A stretch of DNA of 64,000 bases from Squalus acanthias. Taxonomy: Eukaryota. The DNA is taken from positions 106,642,001 through 106,706,000 of the forward strand of contig CM059431.1 of assembly GCA_030390025.1 (NCBI GenBank), read 5' to 3'. The notes under the pieces were generated by a model that was not told where the DNA came from, ran no database searches, and worked only from the letters and a program-made list of their open reading frames with translations. This document shows, in pieces, positions 2,600 to 57,295 of the stretch. The position numbers and the translations under genes were made by a program. How positions within the stretch are numbered: the first letter of the stretch is position 1; each line of letters begins with the position of its first letter.

Positions 2600-2723
2600 T
2601 TTACTGAAGTCAATCCATTACTGTTTTATTCTATCTTGACTTGCTAACAAGGGCTTAACTAATGAGTAAAATTTTCACCTTCAATATTAACTGCATCATT
2701 TAATATATATGCAATTACATATT

Positions 2724-3486
2724 GGGGCAGAAATTCGGGTCCCCATGGGTGAGTACGCGCTGTGTACTCACCCGTAGGGCCACCGGAAGTGCCGGTTTTG
2801 CGCATGCACTGCACATGCACGGGAAACCGGTACTTCCGGTCTCGTGAAAGAAGGGGTTCGAGGTCAACCGCGTGCGCCGGAGAGGCAGCGCGCACGCAGC
2901 GAACTTCGTTTTTTTTTCAGGTTTCTCCATGAGGGTAAGTATGGAGAAGCTGCGCAAGTAAAAAGGAGGCGCAAGGCCTGCTTTTAACAAGGTAAGTGGT
3001 GAATTAAATACAATTTAAACATTTTTTCAACAGGTTTATCTTGTTTACATACTTTAAAGAAAGGTACGTTTATTTTTAGCACCGTTAAAAAGTGTAATTA
3101 ACTTTTTCAAAAATTTAAATTTTTGTTTAAAGTAGTGAATTTACGTAATTTATAGTTATTTTAAAAATGTGATTTTTAAAAAAAATTATTTGAAGTTTTA
3201 GTGAGGTTTTGGGGGGTGATCTCTATTCATAGATTTGACAGGTCTTCCTGTCAAAATCTATGAATAGAGATTCCCTGCTCCGATTGGCTCTCCATGGCCC
3301 ACGTGATCCCAGGGGACGCTTCGAAATAACTACGCCCCTGGGATACGCAAGCACTGCGTGCCGGCAGCTGCAGGAGGCCCAGGAGCCGAAGTCCACGCGG
3401 GCCCAAAGCACAATGGCAGGCGCGGTAGGTAAGTACGCGCGCGAGCCTTGCACCCGCGGGAAGCCGGAGAGCCGAATTTCTGGCCC
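2724..3486 (+). mobile_element. Harbinger-type MITE family M1, copy 1 (763 bp)
   Basis: TIRs GGGGCAGAAATTCGG / CCGAATTTCTGGCCC, flanks ATT/AAT, GC-rich arms with AT-rich core; homologous to 14918-15942 (inverted) and 28221-28964. Confidence 0.9.
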
Positions 3487-3679
3487 AATATATTCTTGAA
3501 CATTACAGTAGGGAATGTGCAGCCAAATCCTCATCGATCTAATGACAGAGTACACACCAGATCTCCATGGTGTTGGTATGCTGGTCATTGCAGAAGGTGA
3601 CAGTCTCGGCATCTGATCTATAAAGTTACAGAGCTGTTTGCATCCACTTTCTCTGGCTGGATGGTGGTGAAGGAATGTA

Positions 3680-14728: not shown

Positions 14729-15449
14729 TGGCAGATAGAGCAATGGACGGCAAACTGGGAGATGTTGGAGATGTCGCCTGTCGCACACTGGAATGATCCA
14801 CTGGCGTAGAAATAGAGGGCGACGGTGACCTTGACTGACACTGAAAGAGCCGTGGTGGTCCTGATCTGAGGCTCGAGGTCTGGCTGCAGGAGGTGGCAGA
14901 GCTCTGTGAGGTGCATTGGCCCAGAAATTAGGCTCCCTGGCTTCCCGCGGGTGCAAGGATCCCGCGCGCACCTACCTACCGCGCCTGCCGTTGACCTCTG
15001 GGCCCACGGGGACTTCAGCTCCTGGGCCTCCTGCAGCTGCCGGCGCGCAGTGCTTGTGTATCCCAGGGGCGTAGTTAGTGCGATGCATCCCCTGGGATCA
15101 CGTGGGCCATGGAGAGCCAATGGCAGCAGACCATCTTTCATTCATAGATTTGACAGGAAGACCTGTCAAATCTATGAATACAAATCGGCCCCAAAACCGC
15201 CCTAAAACTACAAATAAATTTTAAAAAAAAGCCATCGCATTTTTAAAATAGCTATAAGTTAAATAAATTAACTACTTTAACCAAAATTTTAATTTTTGAA
15301 AAAATTAAAATACTTTTTAACAGTGCTAAAAATAAACTTACCTTTCTTTAAAGTATCTAAAAAAGATAAACCTGTTGAAAACATTTTGAAATTGTAATTA
15401 ATTAACCACTTACTTTGTTAAAAACGGGTCTTGCGCCTCCTTTTTAAAA

Positions 15450-15696
15450 ATGAGAAGTCGCACAACACCAGGTTATAGTCCAACAGATTTATTTAATTTT
15501 ACAAGCTTTCGGAGCTGTCACTCCTTCCTCAGGTAAGTTAGCAGTGAGAGAATCTCTCACTGCTAACTTACCTGAGGAAGGAGCGACAGCTCCGAAAGCT
15601 TGTAAAATTAAATAAATCTGTTGGACTATAACCTGGTGTTGTGCGACTTCTCATTTTTGTCCACCCCAGTCCAACGCCGGCATCTCCACATCATGA
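15450..15696. mobile_element. Palindromic Penelope-terminal-repeat element with 13-bp TSD CTCCTTTTTAAAA
   Basis: Inverted repeat 15446-15658 (106-bp arms, 1 mismatch); TSD at 15437-15449 and 15697-15709; absent from MITE copy 1; right arm matches 51330-51440. Confidence 0.85.
15568..15605 (+). ncRNA. Minimal type I hammerhead ribozyme motif (family X); mirror copy on - strand at 15499-15536
   Basis: UUAC-CUGAGGA-A-GGAGC gaca GCUCC-GAAA-GCUU-GUAA: stem I UUAC/GUAA, stem II 5 bp, palindromic AGCU in place of stem III. Confidence 0.8.
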
Positions 15697-16936
15697 CTCC
15701 TTTTTAAAAGCGCAGCTTCTCCATACTTACCCTCCCGGAGAAACCTGAAAAAAACCCGAAGTTTGCTGCGTGCGCGCAGCCTCTCCCGCGCACGCGGTTC
15801 ACCTCTGAATCCCTCCCTTCAGGGGAACGGAAGTTCCGGTTTCCCACGCATGCGCAGTGCATGCAGGAAACCGGCACTTCAGGTGGCCTTATGGGTGACT
15901 ACACAGCGCGTACTCACCCGGCAAGTGCCGAATTTCTGGCCCAATATCCTTGGTCAAGCGGAACCTTCTAACCCACTGGTCCTCAGTGAAGTTCATGTAG
16001 GAGAACTGCTGCCGGAATACCCTGGGAGGGTAAGGCCTCCTGTTGAGAGCCCTGTTGGCCCTCCTCCCTCTGGCCACATTTTGCACTCTTTCTTTGTGCC
16101 TCAGTTGCTTCCGATGTTGACGCTGGAGGGTGAGGTCGAGTGCCAGTACAGCCCCCATGAAAGGATCCAAATATTGCACTTTCAGGTCTCCTGTCAATGA
16201 ACCTGAAGAATCTTTATGTGCCAGAACACTCGTTAAAATGCAATACGCTCAAATCGGTCAAAAGGCCTCTTTGCCGACGTGAAACTTACAACGCAGCATT
16301 GTTGGTCAACGGAAACTTACCTGGATGTTGCGCCTTTAAATAGCGCTCCTCCAGGGGACATCCGAGTGAAAACCGCCTCCTCTACCTGTTAACGGCAGAT
16401 GCACAAGCAGGGAGCGAGAGGAAAATTTTCATCCGCTACCGGGGTGCTGCGCATGGCAATGATGTCATGATCTCTGGGCGCAGGAGATCAGGGCGCAACG
16501 TATTACTACCGTTGCAAAATTCCCGCCTAATTTAGCGGGAGGCGTTGATATCGCCGCGCCCGGTTACAAACCCATTTGTGCCCCGTTAACGACCCCCAGC
16601 GGCGCTAACGGGAGGCGCAAAGGAGCACAATTTCTAGCCTTTTGTGTAGTTTTGACCTTCTGGTAGATAAATCTTTTCTGTACATGTAAGGAGACAAAAC
16701 AGCTTATGTTCTGCCTTGAGATCCACTATGTAACTTGCAGCCACTGATAAGACACAGAGACAACAACTCTGTGGAATGAGGAGCTAATGGTAGTTGATGT
16801 AACTGAGGGCAAAGGTGATGGAAGACATCTGAGGTAATGACCTTTAGCTTAGGGTATAATTGCCTACATTTGTCATAGGACATGAGGAAGACCAGGGTTG
16901 GTCACACTGCTCCTGAGCACAGTAACTGTAACATGA

Positions 16937-28220: not shown

Positions 28221-28964
28221 TGCCCAAAAATTAGTGCCGCTACGCGAGAGTACGCACTGTGTACTCTCGCGTATTCTGTCTCCAATTGCCGGTTTTCTGC
28301 ATGCACTGCGCATGCGCTGAAAACCGGCACTTGGTGAATCCAAAAGGGGGCGGTTCCTAGGTGCACCGCGTGCGCGCTACAGGCTGCGCGCACGCAGTGC
28401 ACTTAGTGCTTTGGACGCGCAGGTAAGCATGGAAGATTTTAGACATAAAGAAAGGAGGTGTAAGACCCTCTTTTAACAAGGTAAGTACTTAATTAAGTAT
28501 TATTTTGAATTTTTTTTAACAGGTATATCTTTTTTAGAGACTTTAAAGACAGGTAAGTTTATTTTTATAACTTTTTAAAAGATTTTAAATTTTTTCAAAA
28601 ATTTAATTTTTTGTTTAAAATGGTTAATTTATTTAACTATACTTATTTTATTAATGTGATGGTTTTTAAAAAAAAATTAATTGAGGTTTAGCTGTTCTTT
28701 TGGGGGGGTATAGTATTCATAGCTTTCACAGCCGTGCTGTGAAAGCTATGAATGAAAGATGGTGTGATGCCATTGGCTCTAACTGAGTCACGTGATCCCA
28801 CAGCTCGCACGAATTAACTACGCCTGTGGGATATGAAAGCCCTGCACAGCTGCTGTCCAGAACATCAAGTTCGTGCGAGCTCGGACTGAAAAAGCCAGCG
28901 CGCAGTGAGAGATCGCGGGAAGGCCTTACCCTCGCACGAAGGCTCACTCACTAATTTTTGGGCC
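28221..28964 (+). mobile_element. Harbinger-type MITE M1, diverged copy 3
   Basis: TIRs TGCCCAAAAATTAGTG / CACTAATTTTTGGGCC, perfect AAT TSD (28218-20, 28965-67), homologous to 2724-3486. Confidence 0.9.
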
Positions 28965-43500: not shown

Positions 43501-44444
43501 ATTGATAAAGAGGCATAGCTGAACTCAGCAAAGATACCAACAGTAAGTATTGCTTCTAATGCTTGGGAAAAATTGTTGGTGCAATAGAGAAGTTCAATTC
43601 TAAACTCTCAATGACATGGAACATCAGTAGACTGAGCCTGAACTTGTCATGTTGAAAATATATAGAGATGTCAAACTTGCTTAGCTCGACTATGAAGGTG
43701 CACCATTGTTCTGGCTATGCGAGGACACAGGTTAACCTCTGAAAATGCTAGTTAGAAGAACATAAGAACATAAGTAATAGAAGCAGGAGTCGGCCATTTG
43801 GCCCTTCGAGCCTGCTCCGCCATTCAACAAAATCATGGCTGATCTTCTACCTCAACTCCACCTTCCCGCACTATCCCCATATCCCATAATTCCCTTAGTT
43901 CCCAAAAATTTATCGACCTCTGTCTTGAATATACACAACGAATGCGCATCCACAGCTCTCTGGGGTAGAGAATTCCAAAGATTCACCACCCGCTGAGTGC
44001 AGAAATTTCTCCTCATCTCAGTCCTAAATGGCCGACCCCTTATTCTGAGACTGTGACCCCTGGTTCCAGATTCCCCAGCCAGGGGAAACATCCTCCCTGC
44101 ACCTAACCTGTCAAGCCCCTTAAGAATTTTATATGTTTCGATGAGATCACCTCTCATTCTTCTAAACTCTAGGGAATATAAGACTAGTCTACTCAATATC
44201 TTCTCACAGGGCAATCCCCTCATCCTAGGAACCAGTCCAGTGAACCTTTGTTGCACTCCCTCTGAGGCAAGTATATCTTTCCTTAGGTAAGGAGACCAGA
44301 ACTGCACACAGTACTCTAGGTGTGGCCTCACCAATGTCCTGTATAATAGAAACATAGAAACATAGAAGATAGGAGCAGGAGTAGGCTATTTGGCCCCTCG
44401 AGCCTGCTCCGCCATTCAATGCGATCATGGCTGATCATCCAAAT

Positions 44445-47282
44445 TCAGTACCCTGTCCCTGCTTTCTCCCCATATCCCTTGATCCCCTTAGCCTTAAGAA
44501 ATATATCTAACTCCTTCTTGAATATATTTAATGAATTGGACTCAACTGCCTTCTGTGGTAGAGAATTCCACAGGTTCACCACTCTCTGGGTGAAGAAATT
44601 CCTCCTCATCTCAGTCCTAAATGGCTTGCCCCTTATCCTTAGACTGTGACCCCTGGTTCTGTACTCCCCCGCCATCGGGAGCATCCTTCCTGCATCTAGT
44701 CTGTCTAGTCCTTTTAGAATTTTATAAGTTTCAATGAGATCCCCTCTCATTCTTCTAAACTCTAGCGAATACAAGCCCAATCGACCCAATCTCTCTTCAT
44801 ACGTCATTCCTGCCATCCCAGGTATCAGTCTGGTGAATCTTCACTGCACTCCCTCCATGGCAAGAACATCCTTCCTCAGATAAGGCAAAGAAACTACACA
44901 CAATACTCAAGGTGTGGTCTCAGCAAAGCCCTGTACAACTGCAGCAAGACCTCCTTGCTCCTGTACTTGAATCCTCTCGCTATGAAGGCCAACATACCAT
45001 TTGTCTTCTTAACCGCCTGTTGCACCTGCATGCTTACCTTCAGCAACTGGTGCACAAGGACATCCAGGTCTCGTTGCACTTCCCCTGTTCCCAATCTATT
45101 GCCGTTCAGATAATAATCTGCCTTCCTGTTTTTGCCACCAAAGTAGATAACCTCGCATTTATCCACATTATACTGCATCTGCCCAATCACCCAACCTGTC
45201 CAAATCATACTGGAGTTTCTCTGCATCCTCCTCACAGCACACACGCCCACCCAGCTTTGTGTCATCTGCAAACTTGGAGATATTACATCTAGTTCCCTCG
45301 TCTAGATCATTAATATATATTGTGAATAACTGGGGTCCTAGCACCGATCCCTGCAGTACCCCACTAGTCACTGGCTGCCATTCGGAAAAAGACCCGTTTA
45401 TTCCAACTCTTTGCTTCCTGTCTGCCAACCAGTTTTCTATCCAAGTCAGTACCTTACGCCCAAACCCATGTGCTTTAACTTTGCATGCAAATCTCTTATG
45501 CGGGACCTTATCGAAAGCCTTCTGAAAGTCCAAATACACCACATCCACTGGTTCTTCCTTACCTATTCTACCAGTTACATCCTCAAAAAATTCCAGTAGA
45601 TTAGTCAAGCATGATTTACCTTTTGTAAATCCATGTTCACTTTGTCCGATCCTGTCACTGTTTTCCAAGTGCTCTGCTATTACATCTTTTATAATGCACT
45701 CTAGCATTTTCCCCACTACTGATGTCAGGCTTAATTCCCCGTTTTCTCTCTACAACCTTTTTTAAATAGTGGGGTTACATTAGCTACCCTCCAATCCATG
45801 GGAACTGTTCCAGAGTCTATAGAATTTTGGAAGATGACCAGCAATGCATCTATTATTTCTAGGGCCACTTCCTTAAGTACCCTAGGATGTAGACTATTAG
45901 GCCCTGGGGTTTATCGACCTTCAATCCCGTCAATTTCCCTAACACCATTTCCCTACAAATACTGATTTCATTCAATTCCTTCTTCTCATTAGACCCTATG
46001 TTCCCCGACATCTCTGGGAGGTTATTTGTGTCCTCCTTTGTGAAGACAGAACCAAAGTATGTATTTAATTGGTCTGCCATTTCTTTGTTCCCCATTATAA
46101 ATTCCCCTGATTCTGACTGCAAGGGACCTACGCTTGACTTCACCAATCTTTTTCTCTTCACATATATATAGAAGCTTTTACAGTCAGTTTTTATGTTCCC
46201 TGAAAGCTTACTCTCATACTCTATTTTCCCCCTCTTAATTAATCCCTTTGTCCTCCTTTGCTGAATCCTAAACTGCTCCCAATCCTCAGGTTTGCTGCTT
46301 TTTCTGGCCAATTTATATGTCTTCTCCTTGGATCTTATGCTATCCCTAATTTCCCTTGTTAGCCACGGTTGAGTCAATTTTTTGTTTTATTTTAATGCCA
46401 AACAGGGATGAACAAATTCTGTAGTTCATCCGTGCGATCTTTAAATGTTTGCCATTGCTTATCCACCGTCATCCTTTTAAGTAACGTTCCCCAATCCATC
46501 CTAGCCAACTCACGCCTCATACCATCATAGTTTCCTTTATTTAAATTCAGGACCCTAGTCTCTGAGTCAACTACTTCACTCTCCATCTTAATGAAGAATT
46601 CTATCATATTATGATCGCTCCTCCCCAAGGGGCCTCGCACAACAAGATTGCTAATTAATCCTTTCTCATTACATAATACCCAGTCTAAGATGGCCTGATC
46701 TCTAGTTGGTTCCTCGACATATTGGTCCAGGAAACCATCCCGTATACACTCTAGGAATTCCTCCTCCACAGTATTGTTACTAATTTGGTTGGCCCAATCT
46801 ATATGTAGATTAAAGTCACCCATGATAACTGCTGTGCTCTTATTGCACGCATCTCTAATTTCCCATTTAATGCCATCCCCAACCTCAGCATTACTGTTTG
46901 GGGGTCTGTATGCAACTCCCACTAACATTTTCTGCCCCTTGGTATTTCTCAGCTCTACCCATACTGATTCCACATCATCAGAGCTAATATCCTTCCTTAC
47001 TATTGTGTTAATCTCCTCTTTAACCAGCAATGCTACCCCACCTCCTTTTCCTTTTTGCCTGTCCTTCCTGAATATTGAATACCCCTGGATGTTGAATTCC
47101 CAGCCTTGGTCACCCTGGAGCCATGTCTCCGTAATCCCAATTATATCATATCCGTTTATATCTATTTGCGCAGTTAATTCATCCACCTTATTACGAATGC
47201 TCCTCGCATTAAGACACAAAGCCTTCAGGCTTGTTTTTTTAACACTCTTAGACCTTTTAGAATGATTGTTTACTGTGTCCAT
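44445..47282 (-). pseudogene. CR1 ORF2 (APE endonuclease + RT), frameshifted
   Basis: [54 protein letters not shown]. Confidence 0.95.
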
Positions 47283-49464: not shown

Positions 49465-51030
49465 TTTACTCTTATACTCGAATCCCATTGTAACAAAAGC
49501 TAAAATATCATTTGCTTTCCTAATTGCTTGCTGTACCTGCATGTTAACTTTCTGTGATGCTTGTACAAGGACACCCAGGTCCCTCTTAGTGCAAACATTT
49601 CCCAGTCTTCCACCATTCAAAAAATATTCTGCTTTTTTGTTTTTCCTACCAAAGTGGATAAATTCACACTTCCCCACATTGTATTTTATTTGCCATGTTC
49701 TTGCCCACTCAGTTAACCTGTCTATATCTCACTGCAGCCTATTTGAATCCTCCTCACAGTTTAATTTCCCATCTAACTTTGTATCATCAGCAAACTTGGA
49801 TATGTTACACTCAGTCCCTTCATCTAAGTCATTAATATAGATTGTAAATAGTTAAGCACTGATCCTTGCAGTACCCTGTTAGTTACAACCCGTTTATTCC
49901 AACTCTCTGTTTTTTGTCCATTAACCAATCCTCAAACCAGGCTAATATATTACCCCCAATCCCATGAGTCCTAATTTTGTGTAATAACCTCTTGTGTGGC
50001 ACCTTATCGATGCTTTTTGAAAATCCAAATACACCACATCCACTGGTTCCCCCTTATCCATCCTATTAGTTACATCTTCAAAATATTCTAACAGATTTGT
50101 CATTCACAATTTCCCTTTCATGAAACTATGTTGACTCTGCCTAATCATATTATGATTTTCTAAGTGCCCTGTTACCACATCCTTAATAATAGATTCTAGC
50201 ATTTTGCCTACTACTGATGTCAGGCTAACTGGCCTATAGTTCCCAGTTTTTACTCTTCATCCTTTCTTAAATAGTGGGGTTATGTTTGCTACCTTCCAAT
50301 CCTTGGGGACTGTTCTAGAATCTAGGGAATTCTAGAAGATTAATACCAGTGCATCCATTATCTCTGCAGCTACCTCTTTTAAAACCCTAGGATGCAGATC
50401 GTCAGGTCCAGGGGATTTGTCGCCACTTAGTCCATTAATTTCTCCAGTACTATGTCTTTACTTATACTGATTTCTTTAAGTTCCTCATTCTCTCTAGACC
50501 CTTAGTTCCCCATTATTTCCAGAATGTTTTTGTGTCTTCTACCATGACGAGAGAAAGTATTTGTTTAATGTCTCTACCATTTCCTTATTGCCAGTTAATT
50601 TCTCCTGTCTCTGCCTCTAATGGGCCCATTTTTACTTTCACTAATCTCTTTCTATTTACATACCTATAGAAACGTTTACAATCTGTTTTTATGTCTCTTG
50701 CTAATTTACTCTCATATTCTTTTTTCTCAGTCCTTATCAATTTCTTGGTCCTCCTTTGATGAATTCTAAAATCCTCCTAATCCTCAGGCTTACCACTTTT
50801 TTGGCAACATCATAAGCCTCTTCCTTTGATCTAATACTATCTTTAACTTCTCTTGTTAGCTACGGTTGGAGCACTTTTCCTGTGGGGTTTTTGTGCCTTA
50901 AAGGACTGTATATTTGTTGCAAATTATGTATTAATTCTTTAAACGCTAGCCATTGCTTGTCTAACATCATACCTTTCAATGTAGTTTCCCAATCTACCTT
51001 AGCCAACTCGTCCCTCATACCTCATACCTA

Positions 51031-51442
51031 CAGATGCGGCCTGCTGTAATTTCCAGCAAAAAAAGTAAAACATCTTTTTGTTTTCCATACAGACCCAGCA
51101 TCTGCCACATTTGACCCATTGTGACCCCACCTCATTGTCTTTGTTGTATTTTGCTATCGTCTTTGATGCAATGTCTTCCTGACTGACCTGGTTGGACACC
51201 ATCCACACCTTTGATTGCCGTGATTGTCTCTCTGCCGAGGTGTGATAAAGGGCAGTTAGAAAGATTAACTGTAGTCATCTGGCATTGTTCTCTGACTATA
51301 TATGCTGTGCCTATATGCATCTCTTCACTTCACCTGACGAAGGAGCAGCGCTCCGAAAGCTTGTGATTTCAAATAAAGCTGTTGGACTATAACCTGGTGT
51401 TGTGCGACTTCTCACTTTTGTCCACCCCAGTCCAACTCTGCA
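51031..51442 (+). mobile_element. Non-coding Penelope 3' terminal fragment (family X) with 9-bp TSD TCATACCTA
   Basis: TSD at 51022-30 and 51443-51 within older CR1; 51330-51436 matches 15568-15675. Confidence 0.8.
51330..51366 (+). ncRNA. Minimal type I hammerhead motif (family X)
   Basis: UCAC-CUGACGA-A-GGAGC agc GCUCC-GAAA-GCUU-GUGA. Confidence 0.8.
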
Positions 51443-52539: not shown

Positions 52540-53430
52540 CGGTAGTGGTTATGTTACTGGACTAGTAATCCCGAGGCCTGGACTAATGATCCAGAGACGT
52601 GAGTTCAAATAAGAACATAAGAACATAAGAAATAGGAGCAGGAGTAGGCCAATTGGCCCCTCGAGCCTGCTCCGCCATTCAATAAAATCATGGCTGATCT
52701 GATCCTAACCGCCAATCTACTATCACAGAACTATCTCCTGAACCTAACAGAATTAGACACACGAAATAGGAGCAGGATCAGGCTACACGGCCCCTGGGCC
52801 CGCTACGCTACCCACAGGGCCATGACCGATCCGAACCTAGACTCATGTCCAAATTCCTGCCCGCTCCCCGTAACCCTTAATTCCCTTTACTTCTAGGAAA
52901 CTGTCTATTTCTGTTTTAAATTTATGTCATGATGTAGCTTCTACAGCTTTTTGGGGCAGCATATTCCATGGACCTACCACCCTCTGAGTGAAGTAGTTCC
53001 TTCTCATCTCAGTTTTGAAAGAGCAGCCCCTTATTCTAAGACTATGCCCCCTAGTTCTAGCTTCACCCATCATCGGGAACATCCTCCCCGCATCCACCCG
53101 ATCCAACCCCCTTCACAATCTTATATGTTTCAATAAGATCGCCTCTCATCAGCTGGGGAATTGAAATTCAGTTAATTAAATATATCTGGAATAAAAAACT
53201 AGTATCAGTATTGGAGACCATGAAACTATTGGATTGTCATAAATGTCGATTATGACAATTATTACCCGGTCTGGCCTATATGTGACTCCAGACCCGTAGC
53301 AATGTGGTGAACCCTTAACTGTCCTCTGAAATGGCCTAACAAGCCACTCAGTTGTATCAAAGGGTAATTAAGGATGGGCATTAAATGCTGGCCATTGCCA
53401 GCGACACCCAAATCCCATGAATGAATAATA
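52540..53430 (+). mobile_element. tRNA-derived SINE with LINE family A tail, split by CR1 fragment 52611-53149
   Basis: Head GTAGTGGTT..GAGTTCAAAT, core GTGACTCCAGACCC, tail AAGGGTAATTAAGGATGGGCATTAAATGCTGGCC.. Confidence 0.8.
52611..53149 (-). mobile_element. CR1 3' fragment with duplicated 3' UTR
   Basis: RGDLIETYKI..SRTRGHSLRIRG; two AATAGGAGCAGGA..GGCCCCT modules at 52630 and 52764. Confidence 0.8.
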
Positions 53431-55434: not shown

Positions 55435-56062
55435 ATTGCAAGGGGTTTTGGAGTATAAAAGCAGGGAAGTCCTGCTACAACTGTACAGGGTATTGGTGAG
55501 ACCACACCTTGAGTACTGCGTACAGTTTTGGTCTCCTTATTTAAGGAAGGATATACTTGCATTGGAGGCAGTTCAGTGACGATTCACTAGGTTAATTCCA
55601 GAGATGAGGGGGTTGGCTTATGAAGAAAGGTTGAGCAGGTTGGGCCTATACTCATTGGAATTTAGAAGAATGAGAGGTGATCTTATTGAAACATATAAGA
55701 TACTGAGGGGTCTCGACAAGGTAGATGCAGAGAGGATGTTTCCCCTCGTGGTGAAATCTAGAACTCGGGGGCATAGTTTCAGAATAAAGGGTCGCCCTTT
55801 TAGAACTGAGATGAGGAGGAATTTCTTCTCTCAGAGGGTCGTAAATCTGTGGAATTCTCTGCCCCAGAGAGCCGTGGAGGCTGGGTCATTAAATACATTT
55901 AAGGTGGAGATAGACAGATTTTTGCAAGATAAGGGAGTGAAGGGTTATGGGGAGCGGGCGGGGAAGTAGCTTTGAGCCCAAGATCAGCCATGATCTTATT
56001 GAATGGCAGAGCAGGCTCGAGGGGCCAAGTGGCCTATTCCTGCTCCTATTTCTTATGTTCTG
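55435..56062 (+). mobile_element. CR1 LINE 3' fragment
   Basis: ORF 55604-55969 YEERLSRLGLYSLEFRRMRGDLIETYK.. plus tail. Confidence 0.92.
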
Positions 56063-57295
56063 ATGTTAGCTCAACCCAAAATCAAAAAAGCAACACGGCC
56101 CACTGCTTGGATTCTCTCACCATGAGCAAGATTGTGAATTTGGTGCATGAGAGTTTCAGATGTCTTCTTGCATTGTTGTTGTTGTTGTTGTAGACTGCCT
56201 TGCCTTTGATTGCCTTACAATAGAGAGAAAGAGAGACTGATGAGGGCCTTTGATTCCTATTTACTCGACAGGACCTTGAATCCATGTGCCAAGATTGAAA
56301 GCGCAGAGGGTCCCCTTGTATCACCCATTGGTATCAAATTCTAAAGGCAAGGTTTTGAACAACAGAAGCAATTTATATTAATTCGGTGGGGAAGAGAATT
56401 CTGAAGAAGTATTCAGTGGTTTCAAGGTTTTGCTGAGCTTCCACCTACAATATCATTCACTTCACTGTTCAAATCTTTGCTTATCTGATTTTTAAGTTTT
56501 TTAAAAGCATCACTTTTGGCTTGTATTGTCCAACGTAAATAATAACAAAGCCTGTGCTATGCCAAGAAAATAAGAATAGGTAGACTGATGAAAGACAAGG
56601 TCATAGGCCAAATCTCCACTGTCCTCAATTCCCTGCTCCACGATCACTCAAGCCCATTTTCTTTTCAATCGCAGTTTTGCTACGGGTTGAGCCAAGGCTT
56701 TATTTCTCTGTTCCTATATGCTTTTCAAAATTCCTTGACCCTAGCAGGAAACTCTCTATTGTCACTAACACACTGAGTGGTGTGAGAGGACTGATATCCT
56801 ATCTCACGAGGTTTGTGCAGGCTTCAACAACAGCAACATGCATTTACATAAGCACCTTTAATGTAGTAAAACGTCCAAAGGTGCTTCACCATCACACACA
56901 GGCAGCTGTCATTGTGTAATTCCAATGTTTTATTGATAAGTGCATTGGAACCTTCACCTTCCCACCCACCCGCCCCCAGTTTTGTCCCTTTCTCCCGATC
57001 TCTTCTTCCACCTGAGTGAGTTATTCAAGGACGTCCAATATCTGTCAAATTGTACCGAATTGTGCTGTGGGTCTGTTTCACACATACCAGCCATCCTCCA
57101 ATAGCTCACCCAAGTGGTCATCTGGGATATTTGACAACGAGTATTAATCAGCTATTCAATCACGGAAGGCATGACAACCAAGCCCAACCTTGACCAGACC
57201 TGACGTCTACATTTCAACACGATACTGGGAACGTGGCCGATTTGCTTTCTGAACGTAAAAGCCTGCAAGTCAATTTTAAGCCCCAATTGGTGCAC

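Follow-up and report, generated by a model that had tools for sequence, protein, structure and literature searches.

A near-perfect palindrome lies at positions 15437-15709 of the window, by which we mean the whole 64,000-nt stretch of Squalus acanthias DNA that was analysed. It is bounded by two forward-strand copies of a 13-nt target-site duplicate, CTCCTTTTTAAAA, at 15437-15449 and 15697-15709, which enclose an insert of 247 nt. The two arms, at 15446-15551 and 15553-15658, are 106 nt each, are 99% complementary and have 1 nt between them; the sole mismatch, A at 15520 against C at 15584, is a CpG-type transition. The exact boundaries of the insert are blurred by microhomology, since the four left-arm bases at 15446-15449 double as the end of the left duplicate and match the element end, and 15697 matches the parent element as well as being a base of the right duplicate.

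The host repeat and the two arms

The palindrome interrupts a host repeat at 14915-15945, which has 19-nt terminal inverted repeats at 14915-14933 and 15927-15945. The repeat is about 770 bp long, contains internal palindromes besides its terminal inverted repeats, is AT-rich in the middle and has three copies in the window. The two sisters, at about 2719-3489 and 28225-28845, are both without the insert. The sister near 2960 aligns across the insertion site and is about 86% identical; it departs from the duplicated 13-mer at the final 3 nt. Because of this identity level and the 3-nt difference it represents a paralogous empty site and not the direct ancestor. The third copy, near 28460, likewise lacks the insert. 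Another palindromic insertion, which is independent and belongs to a different variant (locus L016, G000:C490, around 1655-1677), apparently occupies the same AT-rich site in a repeat of this host family, judging from flanks compared by eye; taken together with the window locus, it suggests a favoured target within the host repeat. Other repeats in the window are tandem and dispersed units of about 590 bp at 43759-44967, 52608-53149 and 55452-56067, and a 1.6-kb direct repeat at 44955-46529 and 49466-51026 with 70% identity.

Numbering positions on the parent element from 0 at the C of CUGA, the long tailed arm (15553-15696, plus strand) is identical at 144 of 144 positions to both pseudo-LTRs (pLTRs) of an intact copy, L072, described below. 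The short tail-less arm (15450-15551, minus strand) covers parent positions -19 to +82, or to +86 when the microhomology is included, and is an inverted copy of the long arm lacking its tail. That tail is an unpaired stretch of 38 nt (15659-15696, plus strand), which terminates on the parent's start codon at 15693-15695. The junction between the arms, GAGA-A-TCTC at 15548-15556, is centred on a mini-palindrome native to the parent, GAGA-T-TCTC, at parent position -20. A putative pLTR poly(A) signal, AATAAA, is found at 15611-15616 on the plus strand and has a mirror copy at 15488-15493.

An earlier note on this DNA, made from the window alone, had described most of this anatomy correctly: the 106-bp arms with one mismatch and a 1-nt centre, the unpaired tail of about 38 nt, the 247-bp insert with its 13-bp duplication, and the absence of the insert from the sister repeat near 2960, which our alignment across that paralogous site bears out. 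Its proposal of a recent origin is supported by the complete identity of the long arm to an intact copy. The statement that there is no coding sequence was nearly right, with the correction that the tail ends on the parent's start codon.

Each arm contains a minimal type I hammerhead motif by the criteria of PMC4209133. The plus-strand motif (15568-15605, cut predicted after 15601) consists of stem I UUAC/GUAA, CUGAGGA, an extra A, stem II GGAGC-GACA-GCUCC, GAAA, a palindromic G15.2-C16.2 and UU. Its minus-strand counterpart (15499-15536, cut predicted between 15503 and 15502) differs in having one U-G instead of a C-G pair in stem II. Both arms thus carry CUGAGGA, the extra A, a 5-bp stem II, GAAA, GC, UU and a 4-bp stem I, and show the conserved core, a helix I of 4-5 bp, an extra base between 9 and 10.1, the G10.1-C11.1 pair and the palindromic 15.2-16.2 that mark the minimal hammerheads of Penelope-like elements (PLEs); the CUGAGGA/stem II/GAAA series reported earlier for each arm is therefore upheld by motif anatomy. 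Rfam gave zero matches in the window at gathering score, and below threshold the 23 matches on 15400-15750 were chiefly to generic models of miRNA hairpins, with no hammerhead family among them. We rejected the miRNA matches as a reflection of the perfect hairpin. As Rfam yielded no hammerhead match, the hammerhead call is grounded in motif anatomy and the literature. The fold energy of single hammerhead units did not rise above that of shuffles (z of -1.19 and -0.50), and co-folding two units did not produce the dimer conformation under energy models that omit the tertiary core; neither result is taken as support for a hammerhead.

When growing prefixes of the plus strand were folded, as an equilibrium and not a kinetic calculation, the core paired with the opposite arm and stem II never formed. 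Since stem II never forms in these folds and no same-sense dimer partner is available in cis, self-cleavage from the 15437-15709 locus appears unlikely. Public sequencing runs over 15200-15950 (4 of 20 runs; contigs only, none of them spanning, with paralogues swamping the signal) showed a centre-bin depth of 89 and 302 in two runs guessed to be RNA, versus about 100,000-180,000 where the repeat is at its commonest; these depths indicate neither that the locus is transcribed nor that its presence is polymorphic. Elsewhere in the window, 51327-51436 holds a lone copy of a related family, 90% identical and with its own hammerhead at 51330-51366, where stem I has undergone a compensatory change from UUAC/GUAA to UCAC/GUGA.

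The parent element and its sister insertions

The 3.7-Gb genome was searched for related copies, which were located by sequence patterns. An exact match to the 30-nt ribozyme core is present 1,310 times. One of these loci, L051, has a 685-aa stop-free frame upstream of the core with an RVT_1 match, and the closest relatives of this frame are uncharacterised shark proteins at 84-92% identity. A pattern running from the tail into the next bases gave 162 matches. One tandem pair among them is L072, a complete pLTR-ORF-pLTR unit with a period of 3,031 bp and an 892-aa stop-free frame (RVT_1 at 36.8 bits, cut-off 29.6), and it has the partial-tandem organisation that forms pseudo-LTRs. The 685-aa L051 frame, which overlaps that of L072, contains DKG, YIDD and a CX4CxxC linker, together with a GIY-YIG-like motif that has two cysteines inside it; these motifs can be read in the L072 frame as well. 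In the protein P0001 the corresponding residues are DKG at 89, the CX2-5CxxC motif at 546 and the Cys pair inside GIY-YIG at 583, following the criteria of PMC8557442. The Pfam search of the parent protein found no GIY-YIG model, and the domain is called from the motifs and from PF01541 on some homologues. By the motif criteria given in the accessible text of PMC8557442, the parent is classed as an endonuclease-containing (EN+) PLE of the Neptune/Nematis type, a sequence-based assignment that does not tell the two clades apart. At L051:2636 about 52 nt of the 3' untranslated part are missing from the left arm and present in the right one, and by eye they are not a clean GT-AG intron.

For a closer view of the insertions, 46 loci were mapped on L051: 18 with the same centre as the window locus, all 25 divergent pairs and 3 further pairs. 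The loci come from the start of sorted lists and mostly from one contig, C1, so that the sample is non-random, and the exact patterns used favour young copies. Of these, 43 could be scored; L012, L051 and L053 gave no directly adjacent pair by script, and each of them also has one short and one long end. In every one of the 43 pairs, one outer end falls within +116 to +127 and the other within +72 to +94 (within +81 to +94 in 40 of them). Target-site duplications, counted with microhomology, are 12-13 bp in 32 pairs, 11-15 bp in 39 and 8-9 bp in 3; the one pair without a duplicate, L039, has a diverged partner. In the other 42 scored pairs the duplication encloses both arms, and so both arms must have arrived with the insertion.

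Whereas the outer ends are fixed, the inner ends vary freely: in the 26 pairs selected by their core they lie anywhere from -3 to -1,855, and most of these pairs are asymmetric and have a short overlap or some filler bases where the arms meet. Among all 43 pairs, 21 are symmetric within 3 nt (17 of which were selected for symmetry); in 9 the arm with the tail extends further 5', and in 13 the arm without it does. Ten single copies end at +121 to +124 (4), +82 to +86 (5) or +33 (1), and a flanking direct repeat of 7-14 nt was found in 7 of the 9 tested. Since the ribozyme is predicted to cut at +29, these insertion ends are not ribozyme cut sites. At L054 and L061 an arm stops at -163 and is followed by an identical short filler, possibly reflecting a variant form of the parent or another junction that recurs.

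The relative orientation of neighbouring cores is uniform. Among the first 100 of the 1,310 exact cores listed, all 25 adjacent pairs less than 10 kb apart are divergent, with spacers of 4-2,818 nt, and no same-strand pair was found within that distance; the spacer at the 15437-15709 locus is 39 nt. A looser anchor, which takes in several related families, gave 1,334 loci where the cores are divergent and separated by 22-52 nt, and many different centres are present among the 50 listed. The variable spacers and the varied centres listed indicate that centres differ between loci. The exact centre of the window locus is nevertheless found at 18 loci, the window included, and the parent carries a native mini-palindrome exactly at this recurrent centre. 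The unfolded native context is present in 7,717 copies by a pattern that admits one more variant, the matching folded count being 20 among the first 50 listed of 77. Of the three native centres with an arm of at least 3 between -45 and -11, the pattern can reach two, and these two account for 31 of the first 50 listed of 77 short-gap loci (20 at -20 and 11 at -30). Measured against an even spread over 31 gaps, which is a crude null, the clustering on native palindromes has a p of about 1e-24.

At 16 of the 18 same-centre loci (L012 and the duplicate L018 being left out) the arms differ by 0.31 changes within a locus versus 2.9 between loci. As the arms agree within loci and not between them, each hairpin was formed anew, and the same-centre hairpins scored in this way arose independently from at least 8 sequence variants. 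A variant in which 13 nt of the ribozyme core are missing is present at three places, namely in the two arms of L016 and in the single copy L069. L069 retains the native upstream sequence and the source of the core-deleted variant is therefore an ordinary element. The core-deleted variant has inserted at least twice, which we read as natural sequence evidence that an intact hammerhead core is not needed in cis for insertion. Two palindromes of a CATTGC variant with the same centre, at C1:62603942 and C1:62605459, are 1.5 kb apart and probably reflect local duplication. L017 (C676:20204) and L018 (C3729:1290685) are one insertion on two contigs with satellite-like flanks. They have opposite centre bases and one other difference in 420 nt, which can be a flip between arms or an assembly error.

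How the inverted pairs formed

The window palindrome combines identity to the parent's pseudo-LTR with an enclosing target duplication and a native mini-palindrome at its centre, and its sister insertions have two fixed outer ends and freely varying inner ends. We hold it to be highly probable that the palindrome is a PLE insertion and a by-product of integration. The fuller description, that it is one severely 5'-truncated insertion of an active EN+ element of the Neptune/Nematis type consisting of two back-to-back copies of the 3' end, is very probable. The Penelope integration with an inverted 5' end that the earlier note had offered as one of two readings is thus supported by the 144/144 match to the parent pseudo-LTR. 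Its wording of a "one-off" event has to be amended: the same centre recurs at 18 loci and marks a hot spot at a native mini-palindrome, where hairpins formed independently. Similarly, the centres vary widely, as the note had expected of an integration by-product, with the exception of this recurring centre.

For the route by which such pairs form, we lean somewhat towards a priming event on each of the two target strands. The GIY-YIG endonuclease would nick the two strands of an AT-rich target with a stagger of about 12 bp, and each nick would prime reverse transcription, one from a start site at the tail end (about +122) and the other from a site some 37 nt upstream of it (about +85). The two cDNAs would each stop early and be joined head to head at a short self-complementary spot, where either the two 3' ends anneal or one folds back and its copy anneals to the other. 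A hammerhead would be found on both strands only because the ribozyme lies within the copied part. Given the divergent arms, a read-through RNA would have its antisense arm made first, and the ribozyme core would consequently be trapped in a long duplex, so that the hairpin would be a dead end and not a replicon. Double priming explains why there is one tail per pair, why either arm can be the longer and why both centre bases occur. The counts in its favour are the tail-less arm lying further 5' in 13 of the 22 asymmetric pairs, the single copies ending at either site, and a centre base, with the tail set right, of A at 12 and T at 6 of the 18 loci, although this 12:6 split is no different from an even one (p = 0.24). 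A stricter version, to which we give a little less than even credence, has the two reverse transcription start sites used one per target strand, strictly one to one and possibly on the same RNA molecule, with the cDNAs joined at short self-complementary spots.

Self-priming offers another route to the same element and the same by-product status. Here a single strand would prime itself at the mini-palindrome and copy itself, with only one target-primed event, as in the model of Arkhipova et al. 2013 (PMC3846280), who argued for an antisense template and interpreted palindromic PLE junctions in this way. The clustering of junctions on native palindromes and the near-identical arms within loci agree with it. 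However, if fold-back of the tail-primed cDNA acted alone, the tailed arm should extend further 5' in every pair and every centre should be T; 13 of 22 pairs and 12 of 18 loci, respectively, show the opposite. Self-priming also fits poorly with the asymmetry, short junction overlaps and filler of most core-selected pairs, and with single copies that use the short end on their own. Later flips of the centre, as L017 and L018 may illustrate, make the fold-back test a soft one and could blur the first two of these counts; a flip or a mis-assembly at this locus weakens the arguments from the centre base and from the longer arm. The identity of the arms could also come from gene conversion after insertion, which is not separable here. 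On balance self-priming is the less likely origin of the pairs.

It is very improbable that a single inserted copy was later turned into the palindrome by an inverted duplication at the DNA level, or that the palindrome is an assembly artefact. The L017/L018 pair does indicate a centre that is unstable or mis-assembled in one case, but the target duplication encloses both arms in nearly all scored pairs, the arms in the window are separated by a CpG-type change, and the same anatomy is found on many contigs. L1-type twin priming on one copy was rejected as well: it inverts sequence and does not duplicate the 3' end.

The remaining reading of the earlier note, a non-autonomous ambisense-ribozyme family of retrozyme-like or viroid-like rod RNAs in which the palindrome is itself the unit that is transcribed, cleaved and re-inserted, has next to no probability: a common centre at 18 loci of similar overall size and an intact-looking core on both strands speak for it, but these loci span several variants whose two arms always agree, contrary to what descent from a common hairpin would give in the within- and between-locus comparison, their ends vary by a few bases with none at the +29 cut site, L016 lacks the catalytic core in both arms, the 18 loci are a small share next to the 7,717 unfolded copies, no head-to-tail repeat of the palindrome unit was found at any of them, and a minimal ribozyme needs a same-sense partner (PMC4209133) that the palindrome does not supply in cis.

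The window palindrome is real and young but ordinary, one among well over a thousand similar leftovers, with no sign of a function of its own. Its structure, its ribozyme and its palindromic junction are already in print. Neither a strict tailed and tail-less pairing as priming of both strands, that is, a PLE "twin priming", nor a count tying junction hot spots to native palindromes was found in the open-access literature. The pairing and the hot-spot count, taken from 46 loci sampled non-randomly, constitute a modest mechanistic lead. Being young and high-copy and having an intact source, the family provides a large natural sample in which models of Penelope integration can be counted, and if the pairing of one start site per strand is true, young shark insertions record how the inverted ends of PLEs form. 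For ribozyme screens these results advise caution, as a hammerhead on both strands of a perfect hairpin can stem from PLE integration and not necessarily from a viroid-like RNA.

Comparison with known systems

Animal non-LTR retrozymes (bioRxiv 10.64898/2026.07.22.740005, accessible text) resemble the window palindrome in being non-coding, in their type I hammerhead and in their origin from PLE pseudo-LTRs. They are head-to-tail tandems with a hammerhead per unit, whereas here a head-to-head pair lies between target duplicates. A retrozyme unit would be bounded by ribozyme cut sites; the ends here lie near +85 and +122, and the predicted cut is at +29. We rejected a retrozyme identity on account of the head-to-head arrangement, with no same-strand pair within 10 kb among the first 100 cores and no tandem of the unit at the 18 same-centre loci.

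The motifs match the minimal PLE hammerheads of Cervera and de la Pena 2014 (PMC4209133) in being type I, in the short helix I, the extra base before stem II, the G10.1-C11.1 pair, the palindromic 15.2-16.2 and the absent helix III. Opposite-strand hammerhead pairs 100-700 bp apart are described there for Schistosoma, and the accessible part of that survey includes no shark family.

Inverted pLTRs are a standard feature of PLEs (PMC8969392). According to Craig et al. 2021 (PMC8557442), typical PLEs have an inverted 5'-truncated copy beside their 5' end, together with a tail of 30-40 bp that may lie at either end, and the step that makes these inverted ends is called still undefined. The Neptune and Nematis EN+ elements covered in the same source are alike in 5' truncation, the partial tandem of pseudo-LTRs, the inverted 5'-truncated copy and the 30-40-bp tail at one end, and also in the pseudo-LTR hammerhead, the DKG reverse transcriptase, the CX2-5CxxC linker and, at the C-terminus, a GIY-YIG with an internal Cys pair. 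The window copy differs from them in being truncated down to the repeat alone.

The Pen2a, Pen2 and Pen3a elements of Adineta vaga, as presented in PMC3846280, are similar in that the inverted pLTR is 37 bp shorter than the full one, in an optional 31-bp tail and in palindromes at the junction. Their target-site duplications are 8-10 bp, in contrast to mostly 12-13 bp here, and their junction is interpreted as self-priming, whereas our counts lean towards priming of both target strands.

Poseidon of Anolis carolinensis (PAc) is the system in which a PLE protein has been seen to extend both target strands in vitro (Frangieh et al. 2024, PMC11167929). Its hammerhead cleaves only with the protein, and insertion works without a functional hammerhead. 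Poseidon has no CX2-5CxxC linker in the description available from PMC8557442, unlike the parent here. The PAc ORF starts inside the hammerhead and its start sites lie more than 100 nt into the ORF, whereas the shark element has its hammerhead some 120 nt upstream of the ATG and a tail that ends on this codon. The two systems are alike in their AT-rich targets, in a hammerhead that insertion does not require and, on the double-priming reading, in extending both strands and in a tail bounded by two reverse transcription start sites.
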